Shown: positions 7,150-40,986 of the stretch, in pieces
Layout: the number at the start of each line of letters is the position of its first letter
Numbering within the stretch: the first letter of the stretch is position 1
Sequence record: MK234886
Direction: 5' to 3' (one strand)
Length of the DNA stretch: 64,000 bases
Origin: Escherichia phage AnYang
Program-made: the position numbers and the translations under genes
The notes under the pieces: model-generated
The model's input: the letters and a program-made list of their open reading frames with translations, nothing else
Databases searched by the model: none
Told to the model about the DNA's origin: nothing

Positions 7150-7179
7150 ATTATACTCTGGTCCCAAGAGTTTGTAAAC
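7150..7179 (-). promoter_or_regulatory. T4-type early promoter (GTTTAC -35, TATAAT -10) with flanking inverted repeat
   Basis: minus strand GTTTAC-N18-TATAAT; GGGACCA/TGGTCC arms flank the -10. Confidence 0.5.
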
Positions 7180-7379
7180 TATTTTTGTGCTTTGGCGCCT
7201 TTCCAACCTTCGAACATCATTGCTGCGGAAATTAACAAAGCACCCGAGCAACTTGAATATTTGTGATTCCAAAACCAGTTTAGAAAAACTTCGTCATCAA
7301 TACCTTGAGCTATCATATTTTCAAAGAACTGACGACGAGCTTCAGCAATTCGCTGTGATAATTTAGATTCAGGATTCAT
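7179..7379 (-). CDS. hypothetical protein
   Basis: 66 aa ORF, ATG start. Confidence 0.4.
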   Translation of the reverse strand: MNPESKLSQRIAEARRQFFENMIAQGIDDEVFLNWFWNHKYSSCSGALLISAAMMFEGWKGAKAQK

Positions 7380-7511
7380 TTAAATTTTCCAGTTTCCGTG
7401 TTTATCAATGAATTTAATCCAGTCATTTACTGACCACGTGGTTGTATCGCCTTTTGGAGCCACATTTAAAGTATATAACCCTTGCTTAAAAAGCATTCGT
7501 TTGATATTCAT
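7380..7511 (-). CDS. hypothetical small protein (43 aa from internal ATG)
   Basis: GAGGAAA SD before ATG at 7511; the longer ORF would overlap the upstream gene. Confidence 0.3.
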   Translation of the reverse strand: MNIKRMLFKQGLYTLNVAPKGDTTTWSVNDWIKFIDKHGNWKI

Positions 7512-7518
7512 ATTTTCC

Positions 7519-7812
7519 TCAGCTGTAACGATAACATTCGTTTGATTTACGTTTTGCAACTTGATGAGAAGTATTGTAATCAGGTTCATCGTCGTTGTAA
7601 ACATCTTTTTTCAGCTTTCTCACTTCTTTACGAAGCTGGCGATTCATTTCGTTCTTAACTTCAGAATCAACACCGCGCATACGTTTCCACTTGTCAGAAC
7701 GGAAGATATTTTCTTCAACCAAATCCTGACTTACGCCGTCCGGTGCTTTACGACGTCCGGAATAATAAAAATCTTTTACAGACAATTCTTTACGACGGAT
7801 AGTTTTACCCAT
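7519..7812 (-). CDS. hypothetical basic protein
   Basis: 97 aa, Lys/Arg-rich, GAGGTAA SD. Confidence 0.5.
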   Translation of the reverse strand: MGKTIRRKELSVKDFYYSGRRKAPDGVSQDLVEENIFRSDKWKRMRGVDSEVKNEMNRQLRKEVRKLKKDVYNDDEPDYNTSHQVAKRKSNECYRYS

Positions 7813-7814
7813 AG

Positions 7815-8069
7815 TTACCTCAGCAGTTTGTATCCAATAAGATTTTTAATGTATTGGACATCTTTGACATCCAAATCCAACTTAATATCTTTCAGGCGTT
7901 CGGCCAGAGTAAGAAATGTTACGCGTTTCCAATTCTTAACAGGACAGCAATAAGTTTTCGGGCCATTAGCGATTTCAATATTCTTATCAGTGATGGTGAT
8001 AAAAATCAAACGTTCATCATCAAGATTAAGGGTGACTACATTTTTCATTGAATGTAATTTCAGGCTCAT
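7815..8069 (-). CDS. hypothetical protein
   Basis: 84 aa ORF, ATGA-coupled. Confidence 0.5.
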   Translation of the reverse strand: MSLKLHSMKNVVTLNLDDERLIFITITDKNIEIANGPKTYCCPVKNWKRVTFLTLAERLKDIKLDLDVKDVQYIKNLIGYKLLR

Positions 8070-8242
8070 AATTTGATTTCCTTAGCTATCGAACAAAATA
8101 CAGCACGGTCACAAATCATTTTAATATTAAGCTCAATTACGGTATACCACACATCCAGGCTAGATATTTCAGTTACTAGAACAGCTTTGCCGTTGATTGA
8201 ATAATACTGGTTGACTTTAATTTCTTTATCTTGGATAGTCAT
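8066..8242 (-). CDS. hypothetical small protein (58 aa, below ORF-track cutoff)
   Basis: GAGGAGAA SD, ATGA overlap with downstream gene, early promoter upstream; hand-translated. Confidence 0.45.
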   Translation of the reverse strand: MTIQDKEIKVNQYYSINGKAVLVTEISSLDVWYTVIELNIKMICDRAVFCSIAKEIKL

Positions 8243-8272
8243 AATGTTCTCCTCATGTGTTGATAGGATAGA

Positions 8273-8300
8273 CTATAACACGTGAGGAGAGGAAGTAAAC
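8273..8300 (-). promoter_or_regulatory. T4-type early promoter
   Basis: minus strand GTTTAC ... TTATAG upstream of the 58 aa ORF. Confidence 0.4.
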
Positions 8301-8301
8301 A

Positions 8302-8619
8302 CTAATCTTCAATTAAATCTTGGTCATAGCCAAGTTCAATCAAAAGTGATTTGAAGGCAGGAATATTTTCTATTTTCTTATTATCGACAAAGATGACAGG
8401 ATAGCGTATCGCTAAGCTCTTGAAGCCTGCACGTTTGGCCAATGATACTATAAGAGGCTTGTCATATACTGCGCCTGACGGCGTCTGGTTAATCACAGGA
8501 TAGAAAGTATGTGGGATAGAAAGGGAATTTAGGAGCGATAGAACTGCAATGCACCCTGGACAGCGCATGACTGTCTCAGGGATACCGTAAATCTCAATTT
8601 TAGTTAACTTTTGGTCCAC
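8302..8619 (-). CDS. glutaredoxin/thioredoxin-like redoxin (CPGC motif)
   Basis: 105 aa; IEIYG...CPGC active-site-like motif; GTG start with AAGGAG SD. Confidence 0.5.
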   Translation of the reverse strand: MDQKLTKIEIYGIPETVMRCPGCIAVLSLLNSLSIPHTFYPVINQTPSGAVYDKPLIVSLAKRAGFKSLAIRYPVIFVDNKKIENIPAFKSLLIELGYDQDLIED

Positions 8620-8896
8620 AGGAAATAACTCCTTGGTAGTCCCAGGTTTTTAGAACTTCGTCCTCAGTAGTTCCATACGGGACGTAAATCTGAATAAGAA
8701 AACCAGTGTCATCGAAAGAGAAATAAACAGTCGGTTTAATACCATGAATCTCTGACAGGGCATAGATGTCCTTGAGGTCTTCTTCCTTACCGACAAAGAA
8801 TTCCGGGTTCAGGTCACAGTCATGGAAGTACCAATCATCACCGAATTTGTCCCATGCGGTCCAATTGGTAGCTACATATTCTTCAAAACGTTTCAT
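8600..8896 (-). CDS. hypothetical protein
   Basis: 98 aa ORF. Confidence 0.5.
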   Translation of the reverse strand: MKRFEEYVATNWTAWDKFGDDWYFHDCDLNPEFFVGKEEDLKDIYALSEIHGIKPTVYFSFDDTGFLIQIYVPYGTTEDEVLKTWDYQGVISCGPKVN

Positions 8897-10137: not shown

Positions 10138-10167
10138 ATTATACTCTATTTCGGAATCGTTGTAAAC
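10138..10167 (-). promoter_or_regulatory. T4-type early promoter
   Basis: minus strand GTTTAC-N18-TATAAT preceded by a GCTCGGT/ACCGAGC hairpin. Confidence 0.45.
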
Positions 10168-11315: not shown

Positions 11316-12322
11316 TTCAGCAGCTCCAGAGCCTGTTCAAGACGGTCTAAACGATTGGTAGACTCTTCCCAAAGTTTCTTGGCAGCGGTATATTGTCCAG
11401 TCAGTTTTTTGTTGATAGCAAGGGCATCTTTATACGCTTTTTCTAAGGCAACGATTTCCGGTAACTTGGATTTAGTAATTGGTGTAGGGGCCATGATAGG
11501 GCTGTTCAAGTCGTTAATCAAGTCTTCTAATGTAGCAGGCTCTTTATCAGTATTCACAATTTCCTCACATTTTTCTTGGTAAATTTCAGCATCAGTTTTT
11601 GGAACAGGGCATTTGATTTCACGAACTGTTACTAAAACTTCGTATCCTTTCCAGCCTAAGTGGTGTTTAACTTCTTGGGTCTCATATTTCTCTACTGTAT
11701 CCATCAAAGCTAAGGCTTGTTCGATAGTATTCAAGGTATCGTAAGCAATATCTTGATACTTTACAACTTCCGCATCATCTTTAGGTTTCCTATTAGGTGA
11801 CCAAATAACAGAAATAATAGCTTTTCCTTTATAACTATTTGTTTTAATCATGCAATTAGCCATTGGGTGAATAGTACGACAATCACCGGAAACTATAGTT
11901 TTAGAGCCCGCTTTGAGAATTAATGCAGAGTTAGCCTTGAATTCGCTAACCCAACGTTGCGGAAATAAACTACTAGGGTCCATACCTTTAATTTTGACAT
12001 AACCTTTTATGGTATCACCAAACCATTTGTAGCTAACAACATGGCTAGAACCCGGATATTTCTCTTTACCGAACTCAGAAAGGATATCCTTATTGACCAG
12101 ACGCGAAAGCAGTCGAGAACTTTTAAATGTATCTACGATATCAGTAATAAACAAACGACCCGCAATCTTTTCGATTTCAGCTTTGAAACAGCGCGATAAT
12201 GCATCATCAATTTGGTCGACCCATTTATTGATATTAGAAACTATTACCACATATGGGGTTAATGGAGGGGTGTTGGCAGTGATATACGTAGTAAAGGCAT
12301 TAATGTATTCAGTACGAGTCAT
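11312..12322 (-). CDS. hypothetical protein (336 aa)
   Basis: long ORF, GAGGAGAA SD, early promoter upstream. Confidence 0.6.
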   Translation of the reverse strand: MTRTEYINAFTTYITANTPPLTPYVVIVSNINKWVDQIDDALSRCFKAEIEKIAGRLFITDIVDTFKSSRLLSRLVNKDILSEFGKEKYPGSSHVVSYKWFGDTIKGYVKIKGMDPSSLFPQRWVSEFKANSALILKAGSKTIVSGDCRTIHPMANCMIKTNSYKGKAIISVIWSPNRKPKDDAEVVKYQDIAYDTLNTIEQALALMDTVEKYETQEVKHHLGWKGYEVLVTVREIKCPVPKTDAEIYQEKCEEIVNTDKEPATLEDLINDLNSPIMAPTPITKSKLPEIVALEKAYKDALAINKKLTGQYTAAKKLWEESTNRLDRLEQALELLK

Positions 12323-12348
12323 GATATTCTCCTCAAGTTGATAGAAAG

Positions 12349-12378
12349 ATTATACTCCATCCGTCCTTGGATGTAAAC
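12349..12378 (-). promoter_or_regulatory. T4-type early promoter
   Basis: minus strand GTTTAC-N18-TATAAT with CATCC/GGATG hairpin in the spacer. Confidence 0.5.
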
Positions 12379-14370: not shown

Positions 14371-14895
14371 TTATGCGAGAACCGTCTTTAAACGCTCTTC
14401 AAATTTCTGAAGCAGAGCTTGGCGTTCAGCTCGTTGTGATTTGTACTGCTCGATACGACCTGAAGTGAGGGCGTACTGTTCATTTACTGATTCCCGCATG
14501 AATTCAGGAATCTCTTTACAAGCTTTGATTTCGTCAAACTTATCAATAACCGCTTGTTCCTCGGCAATCAGATTATCGAAATAAGCGATATCAGATTTAA
14601 CGTTTGCCAGGTCAGATTCAGTAGGCATTAAACGTTTGTTACGTTCAGCTTGATAAGCTTGATTGGTTTCACGACTCCAGTGAAGAGTACGTTTTTTGTT
14701 AGTATTTTTATAGAGCTCTACAATACCAACTGAATCGATGATAACAATCCAGTTCCAACGGCTTTTGTAAATCTCTCCTCCAGATACGGTAATCTCATTA
14801 CCACAAGCAACGTCGTTAAAGAACTTGCTTTGTTTTTCAGATTTGAAATTACCGTTGTTGAAATTAATCAGTGAAAAAATATCTTTAGCGTTCAT
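14371..14895 (-). CDS. hypothetical protein (174 aa)
   Basis: GGAGG SD embedded in the 3' arm of the promoter-flanking inverted repeat. Confidence 0.55.
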   Translation of the reverse strand: MNAKDIFSLINFNNGNFKSEKQSKFFNDVACGNEITVSGGEIYKSRWNWIVIIDSVGIVELYKNTNKKRTLHWSRETNQAYQAERNKRLMPTESDLANVKSDIAYFDNLIAEEQAVIDKFDEIKACKEIPEFMRESVNEQYALTSGRIEQYKSQRAERQALLQKFEERLKTVLA

Positions 14896-14921
14896 GATAA
14901 CCTCCAGTAGTTGATAGGTCT

Positions 14922-14950
14922 ATAGTATCATTTCTACTGGAGATGTAAAC
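14922..14950 (-). promoter_or_regulatory. T4-type early promoter with CTCCAGTAG/CTACTGGAG inverted repeat (PeSL-like cassette)
   Basis: GTTTAC -35, TACTAT -10; downstream arm contains the SD of the 14371-14895 gene. Confidence 0.5.
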
Positions 14951-15304: not shown

Positions 15305-16297
15305 TTATTTCAGAAGGGTAACTTCAGCAATTTCGTTCCAGTCATTTTTATCGGTGGCAATGAAGTCCGCCAGATAAAGAGCTGTACGTAATGATACGTT
15401 ACGAAGACGAGATACATTAGCCTTCATCCATGCTAAAGCTTGATAAGTCTCAGCATCAGTCAGACCTCGATTTTGCATCATATCAGTGGACAGGATAACG
15501 TCTTCAACACGAACCATAATCTCTTCGTTCGAGTGAACTCCGAGGTCTAAGTAAACTGAACGAGATACTAAAGCCTGGAGGTGTGGAGCAAGTTTAGTTC
15601 CACGTTCTAATTCACGGTCAATATCAACGTTGGTGATGAATACGATGGTGCCTTCGTATTCGAATTCTTTATCGATATTTTTATCATCGAGGTAAGAACT
15701 TGAAGTGCTCCAGCACACCTTACGTTTTTCACCAGTATCTAATGCCGCTTTTAACAGGTTCAGGATATCCATATCAGAGAATACATCAACATCATCGATA
15801 AGAAGAACACTATTAGGGCCGCGGTTATTCCAAAGCTGCTCGTAAAGACCGATTCCACTAATCTTTCCGTTGATTGATTTATATTCGATAGTTTCATTTT
15901 CGTGGGCATTCTGTAATGCTTTATCCAAAGAATATGTTTTACCAATACCTGCGGCACCAGAGATGATAAGGGAACGAATTTTACCATCGATGATTCCGTT
16001 AGTCATCATGTTCATTACTTTAAAACGTTTGTTGATGCGATGTTTCATTTCTTCAGAGGATTCAGTAACAACTGCAGGAGCTTCAGCACCTTCCATTTCA
16101 ACGTCACATTTGAACACCCATACACCACGTTCAACACCATCAATCTGTACGAATACCTTGCCATCACCGAGGTGAGCTTCGGATTCATGAATTTTATTAG
16201 GGAACCAGGTTTTACCTGAACTCATGAACGTACCAGAGATTTCATTACCGCGATAGATACCTTTGTTGATTTTGATAGTTAACATTATATTCTCCAT
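15305..16297 (-). CDS. AAA-type P-loop ATPase
   Basis: Walker A GAAGIGKT, Walker B VLLIDDVD; ORF-track ATG at 16324 lies inside the promoter -10, so start moved to the next ATG. Confidence 0.7.
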   Translation of the reverse strand: MENIMLTIKINKGIYRGNEISGTFMSSGKTWFPNKIHESEAHLGDGKVFVQIDGVERGVWVFKCDVEMEGAEAPAVVTESSEEMKHRINKRFKVMNMMTNGIIDGKIRSLIISGAAGIGKTYSLDKALQNAHENETIEYKSINGKISGIGLYEQLWNNRGPNSVLLIDDVDVFSDMDILNLLKAALDTGEKRKVCWSTSSSYLDDKNIDKEFEYEGTIVFITNVDIDRELERGTKLAPHLQALVSRSVYLDLGVHSNEEIMVRVEDVILSTDMMQNRGLTDAETYQALAWMKANVSRLRNVSLRTALYLADFIATDKNDWNEIAEVTLLK

Positions 16298-16323
16298 TTC
16301 ACTCAGTAGATTTGATAGGTCCA

Positions 16324-16351
16324 TAATAACATGCTCTACGAGGTTGTAAAC
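16324..16351 (-). promoter_or_regulatory. T4-type early promoter
   Basis: minus strand GTTTAC ... TATTAT. Confidence 0.45.
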
Positions 16352-16357: not shown

Positions 16358-16365
16358 TATAAATA
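16358..16365 (+). promoter_or_regulatory. T4 late promoter TATAAATA
   Basis: exact TATAAATA 22 nt upstream of the collagen-like gene ATG, followed by AGGAGAAGG SD. Confidence 0.5.
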
Positions 16366-16387: not shown

Positions 16388-17146
16388 ATGATTATATCAG
16401 CAAAAACCATCGATGAATTGAACGAGAAGGTCCAGTTAGCATTAGACGATAACTGGCATCTTTTTGGTTCAACGGTAGTCCTTCCTAATACTGTAACTGA
16501 TAACAGCGAACGATTCTTTCAAACGATGTCAAAATCAGTTACCCAGATTCCAGGACCTCCTGGACAAAAGGGCGATAAAGGCGATCCCGGGAATACCGGT
16601 GCCCCGGGAGTTCAAGGTGAACCAGGAAAGTCTTCATACCAATTATGGATTGATGAAGGTAATAGTGGAACAGTAGATGATTTTTTGACTGCAACAGCAG
16701 GAAAGAGAAGAAAATCAGAAGTGTTTTGGACTGGACTAAACATTGCACTGCAGTCTGGAGCGACGGTTAATCTTATTGAAATATTAAAATCAACTCCTCC
16801 AACATTCGGAATTCTTGAACCATTCTTCAAAGTGTCTGACAATAAACTTTGGCCATTTAATGAAGACAGAACATTGAATTTCAAACTAAATTTAACCGGA
16901 GCATTTGCGGGCCCGTCGCAGGCAAGAAGCATAACATTAAATTTTGTTGGAACAAATGGAAATACTTTAATACAAAGCAGACCGGAAGGTAATGTAACTG
17001 ACGTGCTGTCATTTAACACATTTTTCAGTGTTGATAAAAATGGAGTAATGACAACTAATGGGACAGCAGTAACTTTAACTGCTAATGGAGGGACTTTTAC
17101 AATAAACTCAGTTCTACTTGTTGCTGAACAAACTGTTACAACATAA
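16388..17146 (+). CDS. collagen-like repeat protein (G-x-y triple-helix segment plus Thr/Asn-rich C-terminal domain)
   Basis: 252 aa; GPPGQKGDKGDPGNTGAPGVQGEPGKS; strong SD; only plus-strand gene in the early region; own terminator. Confidence 0.7.
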   Translation: MIISAKTIDELNEKVQLALDDNWHLFGSTVVLPNTVTDNSERFFQTMSKSVTQIPGPPGQKGDKGDPGNTGAPGVQGEPGKSSYQLWIDEGNSGTVDDFLTATAGKRRKSEVFWTGLNIALQSGATVNLIEILKSTPPTFGILEPFFKVSDNKLWPFNEDRTLNFKLNLTGAFAGPSQARSITLNFVGTNGNTLIQSRPEGNVTDVLSFNTFFSVDKNGVMTTNGTAVTLTANGGTFTINSVLLVAEQTVTT

Positions 17147-19912: not shown

Positions 19913-20149
19913 TCACCAGTATTTGTTGATGGTAGAAATTAATTCTTGGACCTGGGCTGTATTCAGTTTACATCCACATCCCTTTAATGTGTCTTTAAGG
20001 AGCCACGGTTCCTTGAGCTCGTCCTTTTCTAGACGAATTCTGTATCCTCGATAATCGGCGAAGATACTTCGATCGTCGAATATCTTAATCTCAAGGATAC
20101 GACCGTTGATTTCATATTCTAATGAAACCGTAGTACTTGCAAGTTTCAT
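19913..20149 (-). CDS. hypothetical protein
   Basis: 78 aa, GAGGAAAA SD, early promoter upstream. Confidence 0.5.
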   Translation of the reverse strand: MKLASTTVSLEYEINGRILEIKIFDDRSIFADYRGYRIRLEKDELKEPWLLKDTLKGCGCKLNTAQVQELISTINKYW

Positions 20150-20177
20150 ACTGTTTTCCTCATTAGTTGATAGGTCT

Positions 20178-20206
20178 ATAGTATCATGTTCCTAGAGGAT
20201 GTAAAC
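20178..20206 (-). promoter_or_regulatory. T4-type early promoter
   Basis: GTTTAC -35, TACTAT -10. Confidence 0.5.
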
Positions 20207-20213
20207 ACCTAAA

Positions 20214-20241
20214 CGAAAAAAGGTCCCACCGAAGTGAGACC
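20214..20241 (-). terminator. rho-independent terminator (minus strand)
   Basis: GGTCTCAC-TTCG-GTGGGACC hairpin (G-U wobble only on minus strand) followed by U6. Confidence 0.55.
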
Positions 20242-20246
20242 TTTGA

Positions 20247-20630
20247 TTATTCTAACGTCAGCAAATACTTAGTCTGGTAAAAGACACCAGTGATATCGTC
20301 CAAAGTCGACTGGATGGCCTTAGGAAGAGTGTCATAGATTTTATCAGATGCTTTAAGAAGCTCGTCAAGAAAATCTACCGGGTCCTTAGGCAAGTCTGAA
20401 GCAGACGGTAATGATGCTTTATATTCTTTGCCACTGAATCCAAGATATTGCTCACTAAATTGGTCCAGAGGTCCTTGAACTTCTACATAATAGAAGTCAT
20501 ACGCTTTGTGTCTTGCATAGCTTTTGGTTTCTAAATGGGCTGACTTAAAATAGGCTAAAGAAACCAGTAGCCAGCCAATATAAGAATCCACTTCAGACCC
20601 TCGACCGGGTACGAAATCATTGAATTTCAT
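20247..20630 (-). CDS. hypothetical protein (127 aa)
   Basis: ORF ending at terminator. Confidence 0.5.
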   Translation of the reverse strand: MKFNDFVPGRGSEVDSYIGWLLVSLAYFKSAHLETKSYARHKAYDFYYVEVQGPLDQFSEQYLGFSGKEYKASLPSASDLPKDPVDFLDELLKASDKIYDTLPKAIQSTLDDITGVFYQTKYLLTLE

Positions 20631-20910
20631 CTTCTACCTTCATTAGTTTTACATAACGCTCTCCGATGGCACGACCTTCAATTGAGCACGTTTCTATAGT
20701 CCGACAACTTGAAATCTTCCAAGACGTCTTAAGATAGGCCCAATAGTCTTCGGAGGCCTTTACGCTGGGTCTACTCATTTGCGCATAAACAGGCATCGCA
20801 CTACTAGCAAATGCATCCATCAATTTATCATTGGTATTATTTGCTAGTGAAACTGTAGGGCTTAAACATCCCGCCATAAGGATACAAGCCGCTGTACGGA
20901 AAATATCCAT
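20617..20910 (-). CDS. rI: lysis-inhibition regulator rI-like membrane-anchored protein
   Basis: 97 aa with N-terminal signal anchor; position upstream of tk as in T4; sequence similarity only loosely recalled. Confidence 0.45.
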   Translation of the reverse strand: MDIFRTAACILMAGCLSPTVSLANNTNDKLMDAFASSAMPVYAQMSRPSVKASEDYWAYLKTSWKISSCRTIETCSIEGRAIGERYVKLMKVEDEIQ

Positions 20911-26933: not shown

Positions 26934-26993
26934 TTTAGTGTTCTCCGTGTTTGTATGAGAACACTATATCACAGCTGTTGTAAAAGTAAACTG

Positions 26994-27296: not shown

Positions 27297-27324
27297 ATGT
27301 TTCCTTTAAAGGTAAATCGCTTTA

Positions 27325-27921
27325 TTAATTACCACGGGCTGCATTAGCAACGGCGTAAGCGTACTGAATATTAGCATCTTTAAACGTACCTTTAGAGGTA
27401 TCTATCTCTGCCTTAAAGCCGCCTTTAGCCATAACATCGGCAAATTCTTTACGGAAGGCCATTGCATCAAGACCCTTCCATGTTGATTTGTGCTTGGCAA
27501 ATTCAAGACCGGCGAAGTTGACCGCCTTAGCCAATTTATTATCAATAGTCCATTTACCTGCTTTAGGTACAAATACCGGACCTTTCTGTTTAGAGAACAG
27601 TTTTAAATTCCAGCGACGAAGGTCACCATCAGCTTTAACAAAAGCTGCGTCCAAGTTACTAGCAACAACATCCTGAATATGGCCAAATTTAAGTCCATCA
27701 GTTTCAATATTTAGGTCGTTACGCCAGCGAAGTCCTTCCCAGGCGAAAGCTTTAAAGTCGGAAGCCTTTGTAGCTAAATACCGTTCAATAGGAGTTGTTT
27801 TAGCGTCAAAACCGTTTCCTGGGTTGTCAACGCCGTTTCCTCGGTAAGTCCACTCATCTTTATTAATGCCTTGGACCTTTCCTACAGAAGCTTCGGCGAT
27901 AAATTCTTTATACGTTTTCAT
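27325..27921 (-). CDS. ipIII: internal protein III-like
   Basis: 198 aa; CTS MKTYKEFIAE; position between ipII and e. Confidence 0.65.
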   Translation of the reverse strand: MKTYKEFIAEASVGKVQGINKDEWTYRGNGVDNPGNGFDAKTTPIERYLATKASDFKAFAWEGLRWRNDLNIETDGLKFGHIQDVVASNLDAAFVKADGDLRRWNLKLFSKQKGPVFVPKAGKWTIDNKLAKAVNFAGLEFAKHKSTWKGLDAMAFRKEFADVMAKGGFKAEIDTSKGTFKDANIQYAYAVANAARGN

Positions 27922-27974
27922 ACGGGTTCCTTAAAGGTAAATATTTTAATTGGTATGTTCAAGTAACTGTAGAT

Positions 27975-28003
27975 ATACTATCACAATTCTAGGAGATGTA
28001 AAC
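27975..28003 (-). promoter_or_regulatory. T4-type early promoter
   Basis: GTTTAC -35, TAGTAT -10, 17 nt spacer. Confidence 0.45.
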
Positions 28004-28402
28004 TTATTTGTAGGTTTTCATCCAATTCTTGAACAAAGCCGCGACGTCTTTCTCTTTAACGTTCAGTTTAACGTCCAACATTTTACCACCCGCTGCTCTC
28101 GTTTGGCGAATCTTAGCAGTACCGGTTTCGCCATTCCACTCAACATAATACTGTCCAGTGTTCATTGCAATACCGTCGCCGTAGTCTTCATTTTTAGAAG
28201 TGGTGAAGGCCAGCTTCATAGTCTTAGAGACGCGGGCCTGCATGCCTGTCTTCAGAGCGTTACGAACGCGAATAACCTGAGGAGTGGCCTGGGTCAGGTT
28301 CTCATTCAGGTCTTCAGTGAACTCTTCAGATTCAAACATCGCCAAAAGTTCTTTAGATGCAGGAATTACATTCTCTGCGATAAATTCATTATAAGTTTTC
28401 AT
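28004..28402 (-). CDS. internal-protein-like protein with CTS
   Basis: 132 aa; N-terminus [10 protein letters not shown]; overlaps start of e by 14 nt. Confidence 0.6.
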
Positions 28403-28883
28403 ATGCTTTCCAAGTACCTGTTTTAAATGTTGAAATCACGCGCTTAGCACGATTAGGAGTTTGTTTATACCAACGGGATTGAGCCAGGTTAACTGCCGCA
28501 TCATCCCAACGTTTCTGTTGGAGCATACGTAAAGAGTTAGTGAACCCAGCTACACCTGCTTCACCCATCTGGAAGACCATGTTAATTAAAGCACAACGAC
28601 GAACTTCGTCCAGTACATCATAAACAGGTTTCAATTTAGGATTACGCAGAATAGCTCTACGAGCATTTTCAACTGATCGGTTAAAGAGTTGTTCAGCTTC
28701 AGCCATAGTAATACGACCGTTGCAAACTCGGCCTATAAGCTTATCTAGTTCAGCGCGAGCAACATCTTTAGATGGGTTCTTGGTAACTAACTGGCCAATA
28801 CCAATAGTCCAATAACCTTCAGTGTCTTTATAAAGATTTAAATCAAGACCTTCGTCTTGACGTAACATATCAAAAATATCCAT
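28389..28883 (-). CDS. e: lysozyme (endolysin) e
   Basis: 164 aa; T4 lysozyme fold with catalytic Glu11/Asp20 context ([21 protein letters not shown]). Confidence 0.95.
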
Positions 28884-28884
28884 A

Positions 28885-28914
28885 ATACCTCCTGAGTATA
28901 GGAGGTATTTATAT
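28885..28914 (-). promoter_or_regulatory. gene e translational-control hairpin with embedded late promoter
   Basis: ATACCTCCT/AGGAGGTAT inverted repeat holding the SD; minus-strand TATAAATA overlaps the 5' arm. Confidence 0.6.
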
Positions 28915-30879: not shown

Positions 30880-31104
30880 TTACTTTTTGTTGAAAAAGTA
30901 CATTTTACCTTTAGGAGATAAAGATACACGAAGTGCGTTACCAATACCAACTGAACATTTAACCAGGTCAGCAGATTTCAATTCACCAAATGCTTGACGA
31001 AGGTCACCGTCACGAGTGTTAACCATCAGGCATTTAGCGCCAGCTGCACGAACTTCGTTTAACATGTTGATTGCTTGATTAGAAAGTTTCATTTTATTCT
31101 CCAT
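30880..31104 (-). CDS. hypothetical protein
   Basis: ORF-track TTG start lies upstream of the promoter; ATG at 31104 or 31092 chosen. Confidence 0.45.
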   Translation of the reverse strand: MENKMKLSNQAINMLNEVRAAGAKCLMVNTRDGDLRQAFGELKSADLVKCSVGIGNALRVSLSPKGKMYFFNKK

Positions 31105-31129
31105 TTCACTCTGTTGTTTTGATAGGTCT

Positions 31130-31159
31130 ATAGTATCACACCTATAGACCTTGTACACT
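31130..31159 (-). promoter_or_regulatory. T4-type early promoter with AGGTCTATAG/CTATAGACCT inverted repeat
   Basis: GTGTAC -35 variant, TACTAT -10; cassette nearly identical to those at 36608 and 40958. Confidence 0.45.
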
Positions 31160-32149: not shown

Positions 32150-32389
32150 TTAAATTTCGGCAACATAAGTATTATGCAATTCCCACATATCATCGGAATT
32201 ACTCTCAACGATAGGAATTATCTCATTAGAGATTTCTTCTGCATAAGGGTCATTGATACAATGGGCATCTTCAAAACGAACACCGTAATCAGACTTCTTA
32301 TAAGCAAAGCCATAAATCTTTTTAAACTTGGCACGAGTAATGCGTACCGGTTCATTAGACTTATCGGACATCGGAGCGTAATACCACAT
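32150..32389 (-). CDS. hypothetical protein
   Basis: 79 aa, GAGGAGAA SD. Confidence 0.5.
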   Translation of the reverse strand: MWYYAPMSDKSNEPVRITRAKFKKIYGFAYKKSDYGVRFEDAHCINDPYAEEISNEIIPIVESNSDDMWELHNTYVAEI

Positions 32390-32432
32390 ATGTTCTCCTC
32401 ATGTTTGTGTAGGGTAATAGTAACACGTATTT

Positions 32433-32762
32433 TTAGAGTTGTACATCACTTCTGCAATATTCTAAAAATAATTTATCGTTGTCTACCGTATCCCAACGAC
32501 GCCAAGATGGATTCCAGACCAGAGCGTTGTCACCACAATCATTGAGCTTAAAATGGTCGTAGTACATAGCTATACGTTTAGTCTCGTCGCCAGAGAACCC
32601 CAGTATAGGCTCACCGTGGGTATGATACATATGATGGTGCATTGAGAGGTCGCATTTGTAAAACATCTCACGTTTACCACGAACGAACAAGAAGGCTTGC
32701 CCATTCATATAGAATTCTTTATCTGTTTTCAAAAGATATTTGAATACTGAATCTTTATGCAT
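32433..32762 (-). CDS. hypothetical His/Cys-rich protein
   Basis: start at internal ATG with AGGAGGA SD; contains CDLSMHHHMYHTHGE. Confidence 0.5.
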   Translation of the reverse strand: MHKDSVFKYLLKTDKEFYMNGQAFLFVRGKREMFYKCDLSMHHHMYHTHGEPILGFSGDETKRIAMYYDHFKLNDCGDNALVWNPSWRRWDTVDNDKLFLEYCRSDVQL

Positions 32763-35183: not shown

Positions 35184-35777
35184 TTACTTAAGTGAATTAA
35201 TGTAGTCGTCGATATCGGCAGAAGTCGTATCCATTCCAACTTGTGGGCCTTTAAACGTTTCTACACGCAGCAGGGTATCTTCAATATCAATCTTAGTCAG
35301 TGCAGCGATTTCAACAACATCATCGGCAGTAGCAATACCAAGGGCAGCCATATTGCGAGTTTCACGGATGTACTCGAGCTTAACGGCCAGTTCCTGACGA
35401 GAGTCATCAAGTTCCTTGACCTTCAGTTTAATTTCATTACGCATTTCGATATAATCATCGGCCTTCTTACGAAGCTGAGTAGCTGTACGACGATAAAGGA
35501 GGCCAAGTTTAGCATGTACCTGGACATCAGCACCTTCGGCAATCAGTTTACGAATTTCACGTTCTTTAGAAGCGGCAAGCTGGTCTTTTTCATTAGCCAA
35601 CGCACGAATACGTTTTTCTTCATTCACAGACTTAACATGAGCGGTCTGGAGTTCAGTAATTTTATCAATCAGGGTAGAAGCAGCTTTGGTGTATTGGTCT
35701 TCGATTGACAGGTTCTGAGCCATTGCAGTACCCAGTTTAGAACGGATGAATTCAACGATTTTCTTTAAAGTGTTCAT
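35184..35777 (-). CDS. coiled-coil protein
   Basis: 197 aa, heptad-rich helical sequence, AAGGAAA SD. Confidence 0.55.
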
Positions 35778-35852
35778 AGTATTTCCTTCAGTTGATTAAG
35801 ATTTATAATCCATGAGGACATTATACCCTGTCCTCTGAGGTTTGTAAATATT

Positions 35853-36251
35853 TTATTTCATTTTTGCGAGGCAAATTTCATTGGCTTCCCATTGAGCTTG
35901 CTTAATAATAGCTTTGGATACAGGAACCCTTTGGCCATAAGTTTTTGACGTTGAGAGAACAATATGTTTGTTTGCTTCATTATGCCAGCCCCATGATTTT
36001 TCGCCATGAGTACCTTTAACTACAGCTGACACCTCAACAGAGCAACCACCATCAGAAATCTTGGTTTCGACAATCCATTCATTTCTTTCGACGGCTTCAA
36101 GTTCTAATCTAGTTTTTTCTTCATACATAGCGGCCCAATCAGTTTTTGCCAAGTTGAAAGTAAGAGCTTTCTCCAATTCTTTGGCAGCTTTTTGTTGTTC
36201 AGGCGTTAATGAATTATACAACTCTTGCATTTCTTTATCTTCGATATTCAT
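35853..36251 (-). CDS. hypothetical protein (132 aa)
   Basis: GAGGAGAA SD. Confidence 0.55.
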   Translation of the reverse strand: MNIEDKEMQELYNSLTPEQQKAAKELEKALTFNLAKTDWAAMYEEKTRLELEAVERNEWIVETKISDGGCSVEVSAVVKGTHGEKSWGWHNEANKHIVLSTSKTYGQRVPVSKAIIKQAQWEANEICLAKMK

Positions 36252-36269
36252 TATGTTCTCCTCAAATTA

Positions 36270-36299
36270 CGGGCTCATAATATCTTAATCATGAGCCCG
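36270..36299 (-). terminator. stem-loop CGGGCTCAT/ATGAGCCCG
   Basis: 9 bp inverted repeat immediately downstream of 36309-36572. Confidence 0.35.
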
Positions 36300-36308
36300 T
36301 GTAAACAA

Positions 36309-36572
36309 TTATTTCATATTATTGAAATAATCTTCCGCATCAAAATCGTTATCATGATAAACTTTGGTAGACAATTTAGCATAACCTTCAGCTGAGAACA
36401 TATTAATCACAACCTTAATTGTATACCATTGTCCATCATCATTACCCATTACTGCGTAAGTTTCAAATATAGGATGGTCATCACCTATAACCTTAATATC
36501 GTTAACAGTAGCACCAAATTCTTCAGGAACGCATTTCATAAAGAAATTAAACAATTCACCATAATTATCCAT
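36309..36572 (-). CDS. hypothetical acidic protein
   Basis: ORF-track start is GTG; ATG at 36572 with AAGGAG SD chosen. Confidence 0.5.
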   Translation of the reverse strand: MDNYGELFNFFMKCVPEEFGATVNDIKVIGDDHPIFETYAVMGNDDGQWYTIKVVINMFSAEGYAKLSTKVYHDNDFDAEDYFNNMK

Positions 36573-36607
36573 TTTACTCTCCTTCACTCTGTTGTTTTGA
36601 TAGGTCT

Positions 36608-36636
36608 ATAGTATCATGTTTAAAGGAGGTGTAAAC
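36608..36636 (-). promoter_or_regulatory. T4-type early promoter
   Basis: GTTTAC -35, TACTAT -10. Confidence 0.5.
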
Positions 36637-36663
36637 AACTTTGTGAAATTATTTTTAGTCTAA

Positions 36664-36690
36664 CCCCCAAAAAGGAGACCGAAGTCTCCT
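36664..36690 (-). terminator. rho-independent terminator (minus strand)
   Basis: AGGAGAC-TTCG-GTCTCCT hairpin followed by TTTTTGGGGG. Confidence 0.6.
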
Positions 36691-36694
36691 TTCA

Positions 36695-37303: not shown

Positions 37304-37331
37304 TGGTATTTCCTAAGTTAATTAACTTATC

Positions 37332-37366
37332 TATTTATACAAAAAGCCCAACCTTTCGGAAGGGCT
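37332..37366 (-). promoter_or_regulatory. terminator plus late promoter (TATAAATA) module
   Basis: minus-strand hairpin AGCCC...GGGCT with U-run, then TATAAATA about 28 nt upstream of the CTS gene ATG. Confidence 0.5.
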
Positions 37367-37371: not shown

Positions 37372-37926
37372 TCAGTTCTTATAGAATCGGAACGGGTTTA
37401 CGTGGAAGGCTAACATAGCCTTAGGGATTTTACGAGACAAAAGACTCTTAAGTTTCCAACCACAGTACACGCGAAGGTAAAAGGTAATACCTCCAACCTT
37501 AAGATAAGGAACCGAAGCAAAAACTCCCCATGCGTCATCATTCCACATCCATAGCCACCCGTGATGAGCTTTATCAGGGGAACCTGATTCCACATCAGGA
37601 TTACCGCGATAATGGAATTCTGAGCTACAATCACGTCCGAGTTTATGGTAAGCAAAGTTATAAGCTTTATTTCGCCATAGCCAAGCTACTCTCTGGAGAT
37701 AAACGCCAAAAGGTAGTTTTCTGATTTTAGCCCAACGTTTAATGTGACCTTTATCACCGTCAATTGGATTATCGTATGTCATCATCCAATCAAAGCCATA
37801 TGGTAATTTACCGGTCTTTTTATTGTGGAAAGGGACTACAAAAGGTGCAAGGATAACAGCCAGAACCATAGAGATAAAATCTAGAGGGACCAACAGAACC
37901 CAACTCAAATATTTTAAAAGTTTCAT
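37372..37926 (-). CDS. membrane-anchored Trp-rich protein expressed from a late promoter
   Basis: 184 aa, N-terminal TM helix, AGGAAAT SD. Confidence 0.55.
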   Translation of the reverse strand: MKLLKYLSWVLLVPLDFISMVLAVILAPFVVPFHNKKTGKLPYGFDWMMTYDNPIDGDKGHIKRWAKIRKLPFGVYLQRVAWLWRNKAYNFAYHKLGRDCSSEFHYRGNPDVESGSPDKAHHGWLWMWNDDAWGVFASVPYLKVGGITFYLRVYCGWKLKSLLSRKIPKAMLAFHVNPFRFYKN

Positions 37927-37952
37927 ATTATTTCCTAAGTTAGTTTACTACA

Positions 37953-37989
37953 TATTTATACAAAAAAGGCCCGACCTTTCGGAAGGGCC
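37953..37989 (-). promoter_or_regulatory. terminator plus late promoter (TATAAATA) module, second copy
   Basis: GGCCCTTCCGAAAGGTCGGGCC hairpin with U6, then TATAAATA; near-duplicate of the module at 37332-37366. Confidence 0.5.
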
Positions 37990-38225: not shown

Positions 38226-38300
38226 TGGTATCCCGCCCTGGGATCGAACCAGGACCGCAAACTTAGAAGGATCGTATGCTATCCATTACACCAGCGGGAC
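38226..38300 (-). tRNA. tRNA-Arg (anticodon UCU)
   Basis: hand-folded cloverleaf: acceptor GTCCCGC/GCGGGAT, T-arm CCTGG-TTCGATC-CCAGG, anticodon loop CTTCTAA, encoded CCA. Confidence 0.8.
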
Positions 38301-38305: not shown

Positions 38306-38971
38306 TCAAAATTTTATTTTACGGCCTTTATTCCAACCTTCAGGAATAATATCCGTTTTGTTAATACGTTTAGAAACTTTTTCTTCTAAAGAATGAATCC
38401 ACATTTTTCCATATCCGGAATTATTTTCACCTTGTTGGTGTTTATTTCTGGCGTGAGATTCTTTCATTTTATTTTTGGTTTCATCTGAATGGGTCTTACC
38501 CAAGAAAGATTTAGTATTTGAAAATTTCTCTCTATACTTAGGATTATCCCAAAGTTGTTTAAACCTTTCTGAACCCATTTTACGATATTTTTCTTTAAGG
38601 TCTGGGTCGTTCTCAAATCTGGTTTTAAAAGCGGCAACTCCTTTTAAGGAAGCTTCTTTCTTTTTATCTAAATATTCTTCAGTGTTTAAATGGTCCCAAC
38701 CACCTTCACCGCCTAATTTCAAATTATAAACATCGGGGCGCTTTAAAAACTCTTCAGTCACAATATTCTTTTCTGACTCAAACATAGAGATTTTATCGTC
38801 AAAGAACTCTAATATTTCTTTAGAGAAATTTTCTATACCGTATTTGGCCTGGGCCCTTTTCAAGAGTTTACCGGAACCAAAATATGCATCATTCAAATTT
38901 TCGGTTGAATGGGCTCCTATATAGATTTTATTATTAATTTTGTTTGTTATTTTATAAGTGTAATGGAACAT
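38306..38971 (-). CDS. segB: GIY-YIG homing endonuclease (SegB-like)
   Basis: 221 aa; N-terminal YKITNKINNKIYIG GIY-YIG motif; sits between the two tRNA genes. Confidence 0.8.
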   Translation of the reverse strand: MFHYTYKITNKINNKIYIGAHSTENLNDAYFGSGKLLKRAQAKYGIENFSKEILEFFDDKISMFESEKNIVTEEFLKRPDVYNLKLGGEGGWDHLNTEEYLDKKKEASLKGVAAFKTRFENDPDLKEKYRKMGSERFKQLWDNPKYREKFSNTKSFLGKTHSDETKNKMKESHARNKHQQGENNSGYGKMWIHSLEEKVSKRINKTDIIPEGWNKGRKIKF

Positions 38972-39012: not shown

Positions 39013-39083
39013 TGGCCCTGGGTGGAATCGAACCACCATCCAGCGATTATGAGTCGCTCGCTTGACCGTCCAGCTACAGGGCC
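39013..39083 (-). tRNA. tRNA with CAU anticodon (Ile-lysidine type or Met)
   Basis: hand-folded cloverleaf: acceptor GGCCCTG/CAGGGCC, anticodon stem AGCGA/TCGCT, loop CTCATAA, T-arm GGTGG-TTCGATT-CCACC; CCA not encoded. Confidence 0.7.
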
Positions 39084-39355: not shown

Positions 39356-39484
39356 AAACACCTCAAATAAAATTAAGTAAAGTAAGTTTGATTAATAGAC
39401 CTTGTCTATTATGAAAGGTTCTTTGAGGGAAGAACCTTTGGTAATAGAGGGTATTAATGATAGAGTAATAATATCACATAATTC

Positions 39485-39769
39485 TTAAAGCATATTAATG
39501 TAATCAAGTTTAATAGAAGCAATCTTCAAAGGATTTTTAAAGATGTCATATTCGACCAATCCATTTTCAGTTGCGGTATAAAAAGTAAAGTTAACAGAAT
39601 TATAACGATGGCTGTTAACTTTGAGTTTAACATCGCTTGAACTACGGCCAATATTAACCTGTTGAACATCAAGCACAGCATCTTTGCCATAATTGCGAAT
39701 CAACAACTCAGCTGCAACCTGGTCTGAATTATAGCCATTCTCTGGATTAGTAACCTTAACGTATAGCAT
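39485..39769 (-). CDS. hypothetical protein
   Basis: 94 aa ORF. Confidence 0.5.
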   Translation of the reverse strand: MLYVKVTNPENGYNSDQVAAELLIRNYGKDAVLDVQQVNIGRSSSDVKLKVNSHRYNSVNFTFYTATENGLVEYDIFKNPLKIASIKLDYINML

Positions 39770-40171
39770 TTAACCCTCGTCTACAATGGTGTGGGTGTTG
39801 GCATTAACAATTTGCCACCAGTCAAAACGATTAGACCCATAAAGAGGCTTATTCTCGTTTTCTTTAATAATATCACGCAGTTCATCTTCAGAGAATGCTT
39901 TAGCGATTAAATCAGTATATCCACCACGTGGATAATAGTTGTCACCCGCGAACAAAAGGAAATTTACCTTTCCAGAAGGAATATATGCTTCCTTAGGATA
40001 CTTGTTTCCTGCATGGTCTAACACTTCAATATAACGATAAGGGATATCAGTACTTTCAACCCATTGCCAAGCCGCAGCAGGAGAGTCAAAAGCATCTACA
40101 CCTAAACGGTTATCTTCATCTTTAGACGGATTATTTTCATAATCCGCATATACATAATATTCAACGTTCAT
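39770..40171 (-). CDS. hypothetical protein (133 aa)
   Basis: ORF coupled to upstream gene. Confidence 0.5.
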   Translation of the reverse strand: MNVEYYVYADYENNPSKDEDNRLGVDAFDSPAAAWQWVESTDIPYRYIEVLDHAGNKYPKEAYIPSGKVNFLLFAGDNYYPRGGYTDLIAKAFSEDELRDIIKENENKPLYGSNRFDWWQIVNANTHTIVDEG

Positions 40172-40356
40172 TATTCACCTTTAGAGATTTTATCCATAAC
40201 AAAAGAGATTGAACCAATTAAAAATGCCACTACTAAAGAGATTATATTCTCGGAAGTTGAAAGCATATCGAGCATGAATCCTGCAAACATACTAAAGCCA
40301 AAAGCAGTAACGGCGGCCAGTGCAGTAACATTTCTAATTAATTCGCAACGTTTCAT
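40171..40356 (-). CDS. small membrane protein
   Basis: ORF-track start is TTG; ATG at 40356 with GGAGAA SD chosen; two TM helices. Confidence 0.45.
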   Translation of the reverse strand: MKRCELIRNVTALAAVTAFGFSMFAGFMLDMLSTSENIISLVVAFLIGSISFVMDKISKGE

Positions 40357-40392
40357 TTTATTCTCCAATCACTCATTTGTTTTGATAGGGCT

Positions 40393-40422
40393 ATAGTATC
40401 ACCACTAGAGCCCGTTGTAAAC
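40393..40422 (-). promoter_or_regulatory. T4-type early promoter
   Basis: GTTTAC -35, TACTAT -10, GGGCTCTAG/CTATAGCCC imperfect inverted repeat. Confidence 0.5.
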
Positions 40423-40424
40423 AA

Positions 40425-40697
40425 TTATTTTAGATAAATTGCATACTTTTTATAACCAGCCGTTTCGTGACGCAGTCCTTTTTCATTAGCAAAACGTTCA
40501 ATATTGTTAATTTGATTCTGGTCAAGTTCTGAAGTATCAAAAACAAAAAAGTTTCGCTTATTGCCTAAAGTTACATGATTAGTCAAATCAATGTTATAGA
40601 GATGATTTATATTATCAATCATGGTCTTAACAGATTTGTTAATTTTTACTTCTTCATTAAGAACAGATTCAGCGATAAATTCTTGATAAGTTTTCAT
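40425..40697 (-). CDS. internal-protein-like protein with CTS
   Basis: 90 aa; N-terminus MKTYQEFIAE. Confidence 0.65.
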   Translation of the reverse strand: MKTYQEFIAESVLNEEVKINKSVKTMIDNINHLYNIDLTNHVTLGNKRNFFVFDTSELDQNQINNIERFANEKGLRHETAGYKKYAIYLK

Positions 40698-40698
40698 T

Positions 40699-40920
40699 TT
40701 ATTCTACGCCAGCGGCTTTCAAAAGTTTTTTAAGATTGGCGGTGCCTTGAGCAGAAAATGTGACCTTGCCGCCTTTTTCGCTGATGCTCCCAGTCAATTT
40801 AGCAAGTTTATCACTAGAGACTTTTTTAAAATCAGCCAATGTACCGTCAAAGGTTTTTGTAACAACCGGCAGTTGGTCATGTTTTTTAGCTTCTGTAATA
40901 AATTCTTGATAAGCTTTCAT
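40699..40920 (-). CDS. internal-protein-like protein with CTS (ipI position)
   Basis: 73 aa; N-terminus MKAYQEFITE; immediately upstream of 57B as ipI is in T4. Confidence 0.6.
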   Translation of the reverse strand: MKAYQEFITEAKKHDQLPVVTKTFDGTLADFKKVSSDKLAKLTGSISEKGGKVTFSAQGTANLKKLLKAAGVE

Positions 40921-40957
40921 TTTGATTTCCGTTTGGTTAGTTTGTTTTGATAGGTCT

Positions 40958-40986
40958 ATAGTATCACGCCTATAGACCTTGTAAAC
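40958..40986 (-). promoter_or_regulatory. T4-type early promoter with AGGTCTATAG/CTATAGACCT inverted repeat
   Basis: GTTTAC -35, 17 nt spacer, TACTAT -10. Confidence 0.5.

Follow-up and report, generated by a model that had tools for sequence, protein, structure and literature searches.

Escherichia phage AnYang carries, in the minus-strand early region of the 64,000 nucleotides (nt) of its genome analysed here (record MK234886; hereafter the window), a family of repeated promoter cassettes, and we propose, with a probability of roughly 60%, that these form an early-promoter stem-loop family with two classes of member: in class A the stem would mask the Shine-Dalgarno sequence (SD) of the downstream gene depending on where the transcript began, in class B a hairpin would stand upstream of the start and leave the SD alone, and both would also act as portable linkers between genes. 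The proposal draws on the sequence features of the cassettes, their predicted folds, the specificity of pairing between cognate promoters and leaders, covariation in relatives and an exchange of cargo genes. The window can be assigned to a JS98/JS10-like T4-type phage of the genus Dhakavirus, and a megablast of positions 20000-28000 matched the JS98/JS10-like coliphages C6, MX01, QL01, WG01 and JS10 at 92-97% identity. Its minus-strand gene order (46, 55, nrdH, 49, nrdC, mobD, tk, vs, regB, denV, ipIII, e, tRNAs, 57B, 1, 3, 2, 4) is colinear with JS10, the colinearity spanning genes 46 to 6 and plus-strand baseplate genes coming after the minus-strand block, and the region under study is the classical early "hyperplastic" part of the T4-type genome. 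In the late region (42-64 kb of the window) a motif scan that included one-base variants found no cassette.

Twelve exact matches to GTTTAC-N17/18-TAYWAT occur in the window, all on the minus strand, where 0.19 would be expected and shuffled sequences held one at most (about 60-fold over chance). With one-base variants the family grows to about 19 copies, 17 of them intergenic between minus-strand open reading frames (ORFs) of the 55-nrdC-tk-regB-denV-ip-e-tRNA region. A preliminary description of this DNA had listed 13 positions as sharing a single module; ten of these are indeed exact, but three are one-base variants (8273 with the -10 TATAGT, 27975 with the -10 TAGTAT and 31130 with the -35 GTGTAC), and several copies were absent from its list, namely the site at 36277-36306, the denV promoter at 26963-26991, the ATTTAC/ATGTAC copies at 35849, 26528 and 32446, and an exact match at 7573. 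The latter (7573-7602) lies inside the 55.5 coding sequence and the listed position 10138 (10138-10167) inside a 49.1-like coding sequence, and since both matches are kept as codons in T4 they are doubtful promoters.

Read from 5' to 3', a cassette is made of an A/T-rich tract holding the stop codon of the upstream gene (for example ctaaaaTAAtGTTTAC, gaaTAAagctGTTTAC and aaaaTAAtttaaaaaaggtGTTTAC), the -35 GTTTAC immediately after it, a spacer of 17-18 nt, (TG)n-TAYWAT, a conserved CTATCAA at the predicted start region, and a leader, about 20 nt long, that contains the SD and the ATG. The CTATCAA, previously described as following the module as a rule, stands directly after ten cassettes (8266, 12344, 14917, 16318, 20173, 24092, 31125, 36603, 40388 and 40953) but not after all of them, and a TG preceding the -10 was flagged by a promoter scan at nine sites. 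Similarity extends beyond the promoter elements, with repeat families of 57-91 nt in which five cassettes are 60-80% identical over 91 nt and seven share a 30-nt core; among the three copies first held to be nearly identical, those at 31101-31138 and 36581-36618 have 34 identical bases in common, but the copy at 40361-40400 is only about 85-90% alike. A generic sigma-70 promoter scan gave no overall enrichment (64 vs. 57 expected, and 45 vs. 43).

The features of T4-type early promoters (-35 GTTTAC, TGn extended -10, -10 TAnnnT and an UP-like A tract) are found here at orthologous early genes; the T4 consensus comprises the -35 GTTTAC, TGn, the -10 and an UP element (Hinton, 2010 review; logos in Nolan et al., 2006). 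For T4 and PST, Comeau et al. (2014; PMC4122927) reported PeSLs (promoter-early stem-loops) with the promoter TTTACW-N17-TAYWAT and described them as terminator/promoter composites located at indels, and PeSL-like sequences of JS98 were already mentioned by Arbiol et al. (2010; PMC2839356). Because the AnYang motif equals the T4/PST consensus, is placed between minus-strand early genes and recurs as the same element at the T4 orthologues, the cassettes are best regarded as probable sigma-70-dependent early promoters of the family published as PeSLs, which is how the preliminary description had characterized them.

Each leader was folded in a read-through form, which runs from 10 nt ahead of the -35 to ATG+12, and in a local form that starts 7 nt after the -10. 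Eight of the 14 read-through leaders had z values of -2.2 or lower relative to dinucleotide shuffles, and in a second folding run z ranged from -3.0 to -5.2 in seven cassettes (named here by their upstream ends: 8300, 14950, 24125, 26991, 31158, 36306 and 40986). Stems of at least 5-6 base pairs (bp) near the -10 are present in about 10-13 of 19 cassettes, and about six cassettes have no convincing stem, so that the inverted repeat reported around the -10 of most copies, with a sequence that varies while pairing is kept, is borne out. In class A an anti-SD-like pyrimidine tract, located upstream of the predicted start and either directly behind the -35 or on the -10, forms the 5' arm, and the gene's own SD forms the 3' arm; in class B the whole hairpin is found between the -35 and the predicted start, and the SD is free.

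Four class A stems are strong. In the cassette before the 55.6 homologue (8240-8300), TCTCCTCACGTGTT (8277-8290) pairs with the SD-holding AACACATGAGGAGA (8248-8261) over 14 bp with one mismatch (z -3.5). Before nrdC.8 (14893-14950), ATCTCCAGTAG (14934-14944) pairs with CTACTGGAGGT (14900-14910), which again holds the SD (z -4.8), the arm pair of the module at 14922, with the SD in its 3' arm, being CTCCAGTAG/CTACTGGAG. Before regB (24066-24125), ATCTCCTGTAG (24109-24119) pairs with CTACAGGAGAT (24075-24085), likewise containing the SD (z -4.3, duplex rank 1), and before denV (26931-26991) a 5' arm placed on or just after the -10, TAGTGTTCTC (26957-26966), pairs over 9-10 bp with GAGAACACTA (26936-26945) and the SD therein (z -3.0). 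An SD within the downstream arm had been noticed earlier at 14922 and at 24097 (regB) only; folding confirmed both cases, and the number of strong ones rises from two to four. The predicted probability that the SD is unpaired changes from 0.48-0.61 in local RNA to 0.01-0.20 in read-through RNA (55.6, 0.59 and 0.16; nrdC.8, 0.48 and 0.01; regB, 0.59 and 0.20; denV, 0.61 and 0.19), in line with the free SD that had been anticipated for transcripts starting at the local promoter.

Weak class A pairing is found in the 20206 and 36636 cassettes, and these are also the only ones with a separate canonical terminator upstream. At 20147-20244 a canonical intrinsic terminator (20216-20244) is followed by the cassette (20147-20206) of a 78-aa ORF, with the weak anti-SD pair TCCTC/GAGGA; at 36570-36692 a terminator (36669-36692) precedes the cassette (36570-36636) of an ORF absent from JS10, with CTCCTT/AAGGAG. 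The promoter-embedded stems of the window, on the other hand, have no U-tract and none of them was called by the terminator scan, so they are not canonical intrinsic terminators, and an Rfam scan returned two tRNAs only and no known RNA family on the cassettes.

Directly behind the -35, many promoters have a pyrimidine tract (ATCTCC, TTTCCTC) able to pair with any SD. Counts of paired SD nucleotides in minimum free energy (MFE) folds are dominated by such generic CUCC:GGAG pairing and did not separate cognate from swapped combinations, and the figure of 13 of 31 T4 promoters flagged by this count was dropped as evidence of specificity; the duplex energy between the pre-start region and the leader was used instead. 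Cognate combinations averaged -11.1 vs. -8.4 kcal/mol for swapped ones in the window and -11.9 vs. -8.8 kcal/mol in T4, and none of 20000 permutations attained the observed value in either. The energies are bimodal: 8300, 14950 and 24125 lie at about -19 to -20 kcal/mol and are each first among all promoters for their own leader (for 55.6, -19.7 vs. a swapped median of -8.6, rank 1), and 26991 follows at -13.9 as second, hence our count of four robust class A members in the window. Splitting the sequences at a fixed distance of 24 nt from the ATG misses some of the stems that have their 5' arm on the -10. When strands were compared, sense RNA folded better than antisense for nrdC.8 (12 of 12) and regB (8 of 12), not for denV, and G-U pairs numbered 80 in sense folds vs. 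46 in antisense folds.

Relatives were compared at the regB, nrdC.8 and denV loci of IMG/VR genomes and in 129 kb of T4. T4 has the same cassettes before regB, denV, nrdC.8, ipI-III and trna.4, and its stems are TTTTCCTCTTGACTG/CAGTTAAGAGGAGAA at regB (-23 kcal/mol), GTTCCTCTGTGG/CTACGGAGGAAC at nrdC.8 and ATCTCCTGTAG/CTACAGGAGA at denV. Over 51 nt, the denV cassette of T4 and the regB cassette of AnYang are about 90% identical, and therefore the same cassette stands before different genes in different phages. Long cognate-specific stems were found in 7 of 31 T4 promoter-gene units (motB.2, denV, regB, nrdC.8, alc, alt.-3 and one in the ndd region). Within T4, alt.-3 (123093) and alc (136336) have near-identical SD-sequestering early cassettes (GTTTACAAGTCCCTCGTGTTGTGTTATAGTAGTCTTACT.ACATAACATGAGGA), a duplication inside that genome.

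Covariation, which the preliminary description had expected of the arms in related genomes, is seen at denV. Thirty T4-like leaders have a -35 close to GTTTAC, and in every one of them the SD is paired with bases lying 5' of the predicted start; at least ten unrelated arm pairs are used for this, such as CTCCGTTTG/CAAACGGAG, TTCCTCCAAG/CTTGGAGGAA, GATGTCTTCC/GGAGGACATC and AGTAGCCTT/GGAGGCTACT. The 5' arm has two placements, either just after the -35 ("spacer arm") or on the -10 ("-10 arm"). In the alignment of the "-10 arm" form (15 sequences) 91% of the cells are paired, vs. 43-59% with the partners slid, none of 500 shuffles reaches the score, and five of the ten pairs are changed on both sides, in 19 cells. 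As the two placements share only their SD target, this argues that the trait under selection at denV would be the hiding of the SD and not the enclosing of the -10. SD-sequestering stems of differing sequence also occur at regB in Dhakavirus, T4 and two further lineages, sometimes as an outer helix around an inner class B hairpin, and at nrdC.8 such stems are kept with different sequences in Dhakavirus, T4 and other lineages. For 12 "spacer-arm" cassettes aligned with MAFFT, RNAalifold returned no consensus structure, since the register of the arms varies and sequence alignment fails to match them; folds of single sequences and permutation tests took its place. The denV homologues of jumbo phages, preceded by a terminator and a TTGAC promoter instead, showed no SD pairing. 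In three such contigs (L061, L063 and L071; 345-378 kb) the -35 TTGAC lies about 60 nt upstream of denV within the stem of a strong terminator hairpin, e.g., aaaagggTTGACttcggtcagccctttttgcTATAAT, an arrangement that resembles the RB49-type G(n)-loop-C(n) PeSL.

Class B comprises six cassettes. That before the 55.2 homologue (7108-7179; named from the colinearity with JS10) has the stem GGGACCA/TGGTCCT (7159-7165/7144-7150) enclosing the -10 TATAAT (z -2.3). The pair AGGTCTATAG/CTATAGACCT is shared by the cassette of a 70-aa-class ORF (31090-31158; arms at 31142-31151/31124-31133, -35 GTGTAC, z -3.2) and by that of a 73-aa internal-protein-like gene (40918-40986; arms at 40970-40979/40952-40961, z -3.6). 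The e.6 cassette (35775-35849), with the -35 ATTTAC, carries GAGGACA/TGTCCTC (35829-35835/35814-35820), that of a 132-aa ORF (36249-36306) a G+C-rich stem of 10-13 bp, ACGGGCTCAT/ATGAGCCCGT (36291-36300/36269-36278; z -5.2), and that of trna.4 (40354-40422) the short stem GGGCT/AGCCC. In read-through RNA the class B SD is predicted to be more open than when its leader is joined to other promoters, as seen for the 40422, 36306 and 40986 cassettes and for trna.4, ipII and ipI of T4 (for example 0.72 vs. 0.44, and 0.71 vs. 0.35 for T4 trna.4); on these folding models the promoter-internal hairpin may keep the pyrimidine tract off the SD.

The cassettes also mark places where gene content changes. 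Homology with JS10 breaks at or within cassettes at 16333, 24131, 26936, 27991/28004, 36262, 40431 and 41003. Between the conserved cassettes 40986 and 40422, the upstream and downstream boundaries of a swapped internal-protein module, AnYang has two small genes (73 and 90 aa) where JS10 has a single different one; the ORF at 28004-28402 stands between ipIII and e in AnYang and between denV and ipIII in JS10, and the denV cassette itself differs between AnYang and JS98-type genomes, in which the cassettes of regB and denV are near-identical. Eight minus-strand genes (starts at 26106, 26474, 27296, 27921, 28402, 37303, 40697 and 40920; repeat families D2/D4/D6) begin with 30-40 nearly identical nt encoding MKTYQEFI, an N-terminal signature shared with ipIII, and the cargo flanked or swapped at cassettes therefore consists largely of internal head protein genes, whose polymorphism was already linked to PeSL elements by the authors who studied these (Comeau et al., 2014; PMC4122927). 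The 60-90 nt common to the cassettes could provide portable homology, making the genes between two copies exchangeable. The modular shuffling ascribed to the cassettes in the preliminary description is thus sustained by the comparison with JS10 and T4, in which cargo differs between conserved cassettes and one cassette serves regB in AnYang and denV in T4; it is supported by such examples, not by statistics, as the enrichment of breakpoints is weak.

According to the proposed mechanism, a class A message started locally would lack the 5' arm, leaving its SD free for translation; RNA coming from upstream promoters would fold and hide the SD. Expression of class A genes would then be restricted to the first minutes, when their own early promoter is active, and these genes would be insulated from middle and late read-through, which for denV would come from the heavily transcribed internal-protein genes just upstream. 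In T4 the regB early promoter is shut off within 2-3 min and the gene is under tight control (Uzan and Miller, 2010; PMC3014915), and 5' ends were detected by primer extension for the denV and mobD.5 promoters (Durand, 2006; PMC1702504). Where transcription starts, whether and how much read-through RNA exists, and how translation is affected we infer from the sequence. For class B the candidate roles are those of an attenuator, of a protector of the 3' end of the upstream message, or of a device tying up the pyrimidine tract.

Several observations weigh against this proposal. All transcription starts were predicted by rule, 7 nt after the -10, and the leaders measure about 20 nt, so that a 3' arm lying past the start is bound to overlap the SD. 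Pairing of the SD with pre-start bases is partly generic, and only the long-stem subset is specific: the number of SD-window nucleotides paired to pre-start bases in MFE folds did not set cognate combinations above swapped ones (5.29 vs. 5.32 in T4; 4.25 vs. 3.56 in the window, P = 0.13), and mean SD accessibility was not significantly lower for cognate than for swapped ones. In one regB lineage (L007-L009) the only stem misses the SD. The advantage of sense over antisense folds gives modest support and is absent for denV, which leaves room for a role at the DNA level. Break endpoints fall at cassettes in 7-8 of about 30 cases, vs. about 5 expected if breaks prefer gene boundaries. Finally, our literature search found no description of early promoters carrying an anti-SD arm, but older T4 papers may already describe such stems; stem-loops before T4 ORFs of this region were reportedly noted by Valerie and colleagues in 1986.

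Among other explanations, the stems could be terminators or attenuators of upstream RNA whose overlap with the SD is incidental, which is the function proposed for PeSL stem-loops. When one PeSL stem-loop of phi1 was inserted in front of lacZ, expression fell to an extent similar to that caused by the rrnB T1 terminator (Arbiol et al., 2010; PMC2839356), and the class B hairpins at 31158, 36306, 40986, 7179 and 35849 do lie at the 3' end of the upstream gene with the SD untouched. For the embedded stems as a whole we consider this explanation unlikely, given the missing U-tract and the silent terminator scan, the redundancy that the separate canonical terminators upstream of two cassettes would represent, and the behavior of class A, whose arms covary with the SD-to-ATG sequence and whose two denV placements converge on the SD, neither of which a terminator needs. 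Class A stems might instead act on RNA decay, the hidden GGAG shielding read-through transcripts from RegB while local early transcripts stay cleavable. The class A 3' arms contain GGAG or GAGG, and RegB, whose cleavage of GGAG at the SD of early mRNAs is inhibited by secondary structure, spares 16 T4 RNAs that have their GGAG in stable structures; nonetheless the T4 denV SD owes its resistance to the sequence 3' of GGAG and not to structure (Durand, 2006; PMC1702504), the AnYang denV leader has the same sequence, and several class A SDs depart from the RegB/S1 consensus GGAGRAYARAA. We regard protection from RegB as an improbable substitute for translational masking, with which it would in any case be compatible.

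That the inverted repeats act in DNA, as cruciform or hairpin sites for recombination or replication restart, or are by-products of recombination with no function in RNA, appears very unlikely. Recombination and mini-circle formation have been reported for PeSLs (Arbiol et al., 2010; PMC2839356), conserved cassettes enclose differing cargo, and the two strands fold about equally at denV, but recombination requires the shared promoter and not the arms, which are the least conserved part between copies and yet remain complementary; moreover, the sense strand folds better at nrdC.8 and regB with an excess of G-U pairs, and in case after case the 3' arm is a signal that works in RNA. Equally small is the chance that there is no selected function at all and that a pyrimidine-rich consensus spacer merely happens to complement purine-rich SDs. 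The SD window is paired at a similar rate in swapped and in cognate combinations, and accessibility in the swapped ones is already at about 0.35-0.5, but the cognate stems of class A are 8-15 kcal/mol stronger than swapped ones and first or second among promoters, compensatory changes occur across lineages, and fold z values go down to -5, so that this explanation is already disfavored for the strong subset. Two further candidates were rejected. As the main explanation, translational coupling would require the 5' arm to be within reach of the terminating ribosome, and, given the footprint of a ribosome, arms 9-12 nt after the upstream stop ("spacer arm") are at or beyond this reach and those at 30 nt or more ("-10 arm") well beyond it; RNase III sites were discarded on stem length, 9-14 bp.

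Origin-dependent masking by class A stems could be extended, as a speculation we consider rather doubtful, to an "origin tag" by which about one fifth to one quarter of the predicted early-promoter units of the Tevenvirinae (in T4 regB, denV, nrdC.8, alc, motB.2 and alt.-3) would gate both translation and RegB cleavage according to transcript origin, class B being the opposite setting, with the pyrimidine tract tied up and the SD left open, and PeSL stem-loops acting mainly as translational insulators and not as terminators. If true, such a tag would go some way towards explaining why early messages are inactivated by RegB when middle and late ones are not, and how the synthesis of early proteins ceases during continued transcription of their genes. 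The promoter and PeSL-shuffling part of our analysis is already known, and AnYang adds one genome to the family. The SD-sequestering early-promoter subclass looks like a modestly novel, under-described variant of the principle known from T4 genes e, soc, 49 and I-TevI. It is present in T4 at the well-studied regB, denV and alc, outside the list of inhibitory leader structures given by Uzan and Miller (2010; PMC3014915), which contains only e, soc, 49, I-TevI, mobE and segB. If true, class A would be a cis device confining the translation of a gene to the life of its own early promoter, and PeSL stem-loops would gain a role other than termination; for annotation and for the engineering of T4-like therapeutic phages it would follow that a gene moved without its cassette, or placed behind a strong upstream promoter, could be silenced.

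The remaining cassettes have little or no structure. In that of nrdC.4 (12320-12378) the fold is not significant (z -0.4) and the only hairpin is a small one in the spacer, CATCC/GGATG; a variant before a 119-aa internal-protein-like gene (26472-26528) has a -35 ATTTAC overlapping the end of denV, CTATCAAC after the -10 and no stem; the ipIII cassette (27919-28003), which contains the JS10 homology break at 27991/28004, has no significant stem here and one in T4; and the variant before a 79-aa ORF (32387-32446; -35 ATGTAC) has no clear stem and an uncertain status. The nrdC.10 cassette (16283-16351) has a weak bulged stem with a break of JS10 homology inside (16333) and stands back to back with a plus-strand late promoter, the motif TATAAATA at 16358-16365. 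This motif precedes a plus-strand ORF of 252 aa (16388-17146) located within the minus-strand early region between nrdC.10 and nrdC.11, absent from JS10 and carrying an Sf6-type tail needle knob domain (PF16532, E 3e-32) and a collagen-like repeat.

Units analogous to the early cassettes but built with late promoters flank the ORF at 37372-37926: two 37-nt minus-strand repeats, 81% identical (37329-37365 and 37952-37988), each consist of an intrinsic terminator hairpin (GCCCTTCCGAAAGG..GGGC with a T-run) followed at once by TATAAATA. A homing-endonuclease-like ORF with GIY-YIG and NUMOD3 similarity (segB-like; 38306-38971, minus strand) lies between the tRNA genes at 38229-38300 and 39013-39083. 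As for regB itself, its SD context GGAGAUUACAA (24066-24085, minus strand) deviates from the RegB/S1 consensus by a U at position 6 and by a C at position 9, a base that none of the RegB-cleaved sites had there (Durand, 2006; PMC1702504); because of this deviation RegB self-cleavage may be weaker in the AnYang lineage than in T4.

Compared with known systems, the AnYang cassettes share with T4 early promoters the -35 hexamer, the spacing, the extended -10, the A-rich tract, the orientation and the positions at regB, denV, nrdC.8, ipIII and trna.4, differing in the preference of the AnYang lineage for the -10 TACTAT followed by AGACCTATCAA. With the PeSLs of T4-type phages they have in common the whole intergenic composite of A/T tract with stop codon, sigma-70-type promoter, variable stem-loop, SD and ATG, as well as the many copies in hyperplastic early regions, at indels and gene swaps between close relatives. 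In RB49 and phi1, however, five stem positions were described, all ending before the start site, and the stem was read as a terminator (Arbiol et al., 2010; PMC2839356), whereas the AnYang subclass has a 3' arm downstream of the predicted start, on the SD, and no U-tract, its promoter role being deduced from sequence. Lambdoid morons (promoter-gene-terminator) are similar in that accessory genes travel with their own transcription signals, but those signals are not conserved repeats serving as recombination substrate and include no promoter-embedded anti-SD arm. The hairpins over the ribosome binding sites of homing endonuclease genes (Aeh1 mobE, and implicated for T4 segB) also place a helix over the ribosome binding site of a small accessory gene, but they are not built around the gene's own early promoter and form no repeated cassette family.

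The nearest mechanistic relatives would be the leaders of the e/soc/49/I-TevI type, in which a late promoter lies inside the hairpin (Uzan and Miller, 2010; PMC3014915). The window contains an internal positive example of this SD-hiding principle in gene e (lysozyme; 28871-28913, minus strand), where the late promoter TATAAATA (28906-28913) overlaps the 5' arm ATACCTCC (28901-28908) and the 3' arm GGAGGTAT (28885-28892) covers the SD, the hairpin TATAAATAcctcc...ggaggtattATG having the classical T4 late-promoter form. As in those leaders, the class A cassettes at 8300, 14950, 24125 and 26991 have the SD and/or the AUG paired with bases upstream of a promoter-proximal (here predicted) start, in a helix that at denV is kept by compensatory change and at regB and nrdC.8 has different arms in relatives, and in the T4 cases long transcripts are silent and locally started ones translated. 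The difference lies in the internal promoter, which is late (or middle) in the T4 examples and delays translation, whereas in AnYang class A it is of the sigma-70 early type, the late motif TATAAATA being limited to gene e and a few other sites, and the predicted outcome is the reverse, translation in the first minutes only. Judged by its sequence, class A is therefore a variant and not a strict member of the promoter-in-hairpin translational block.

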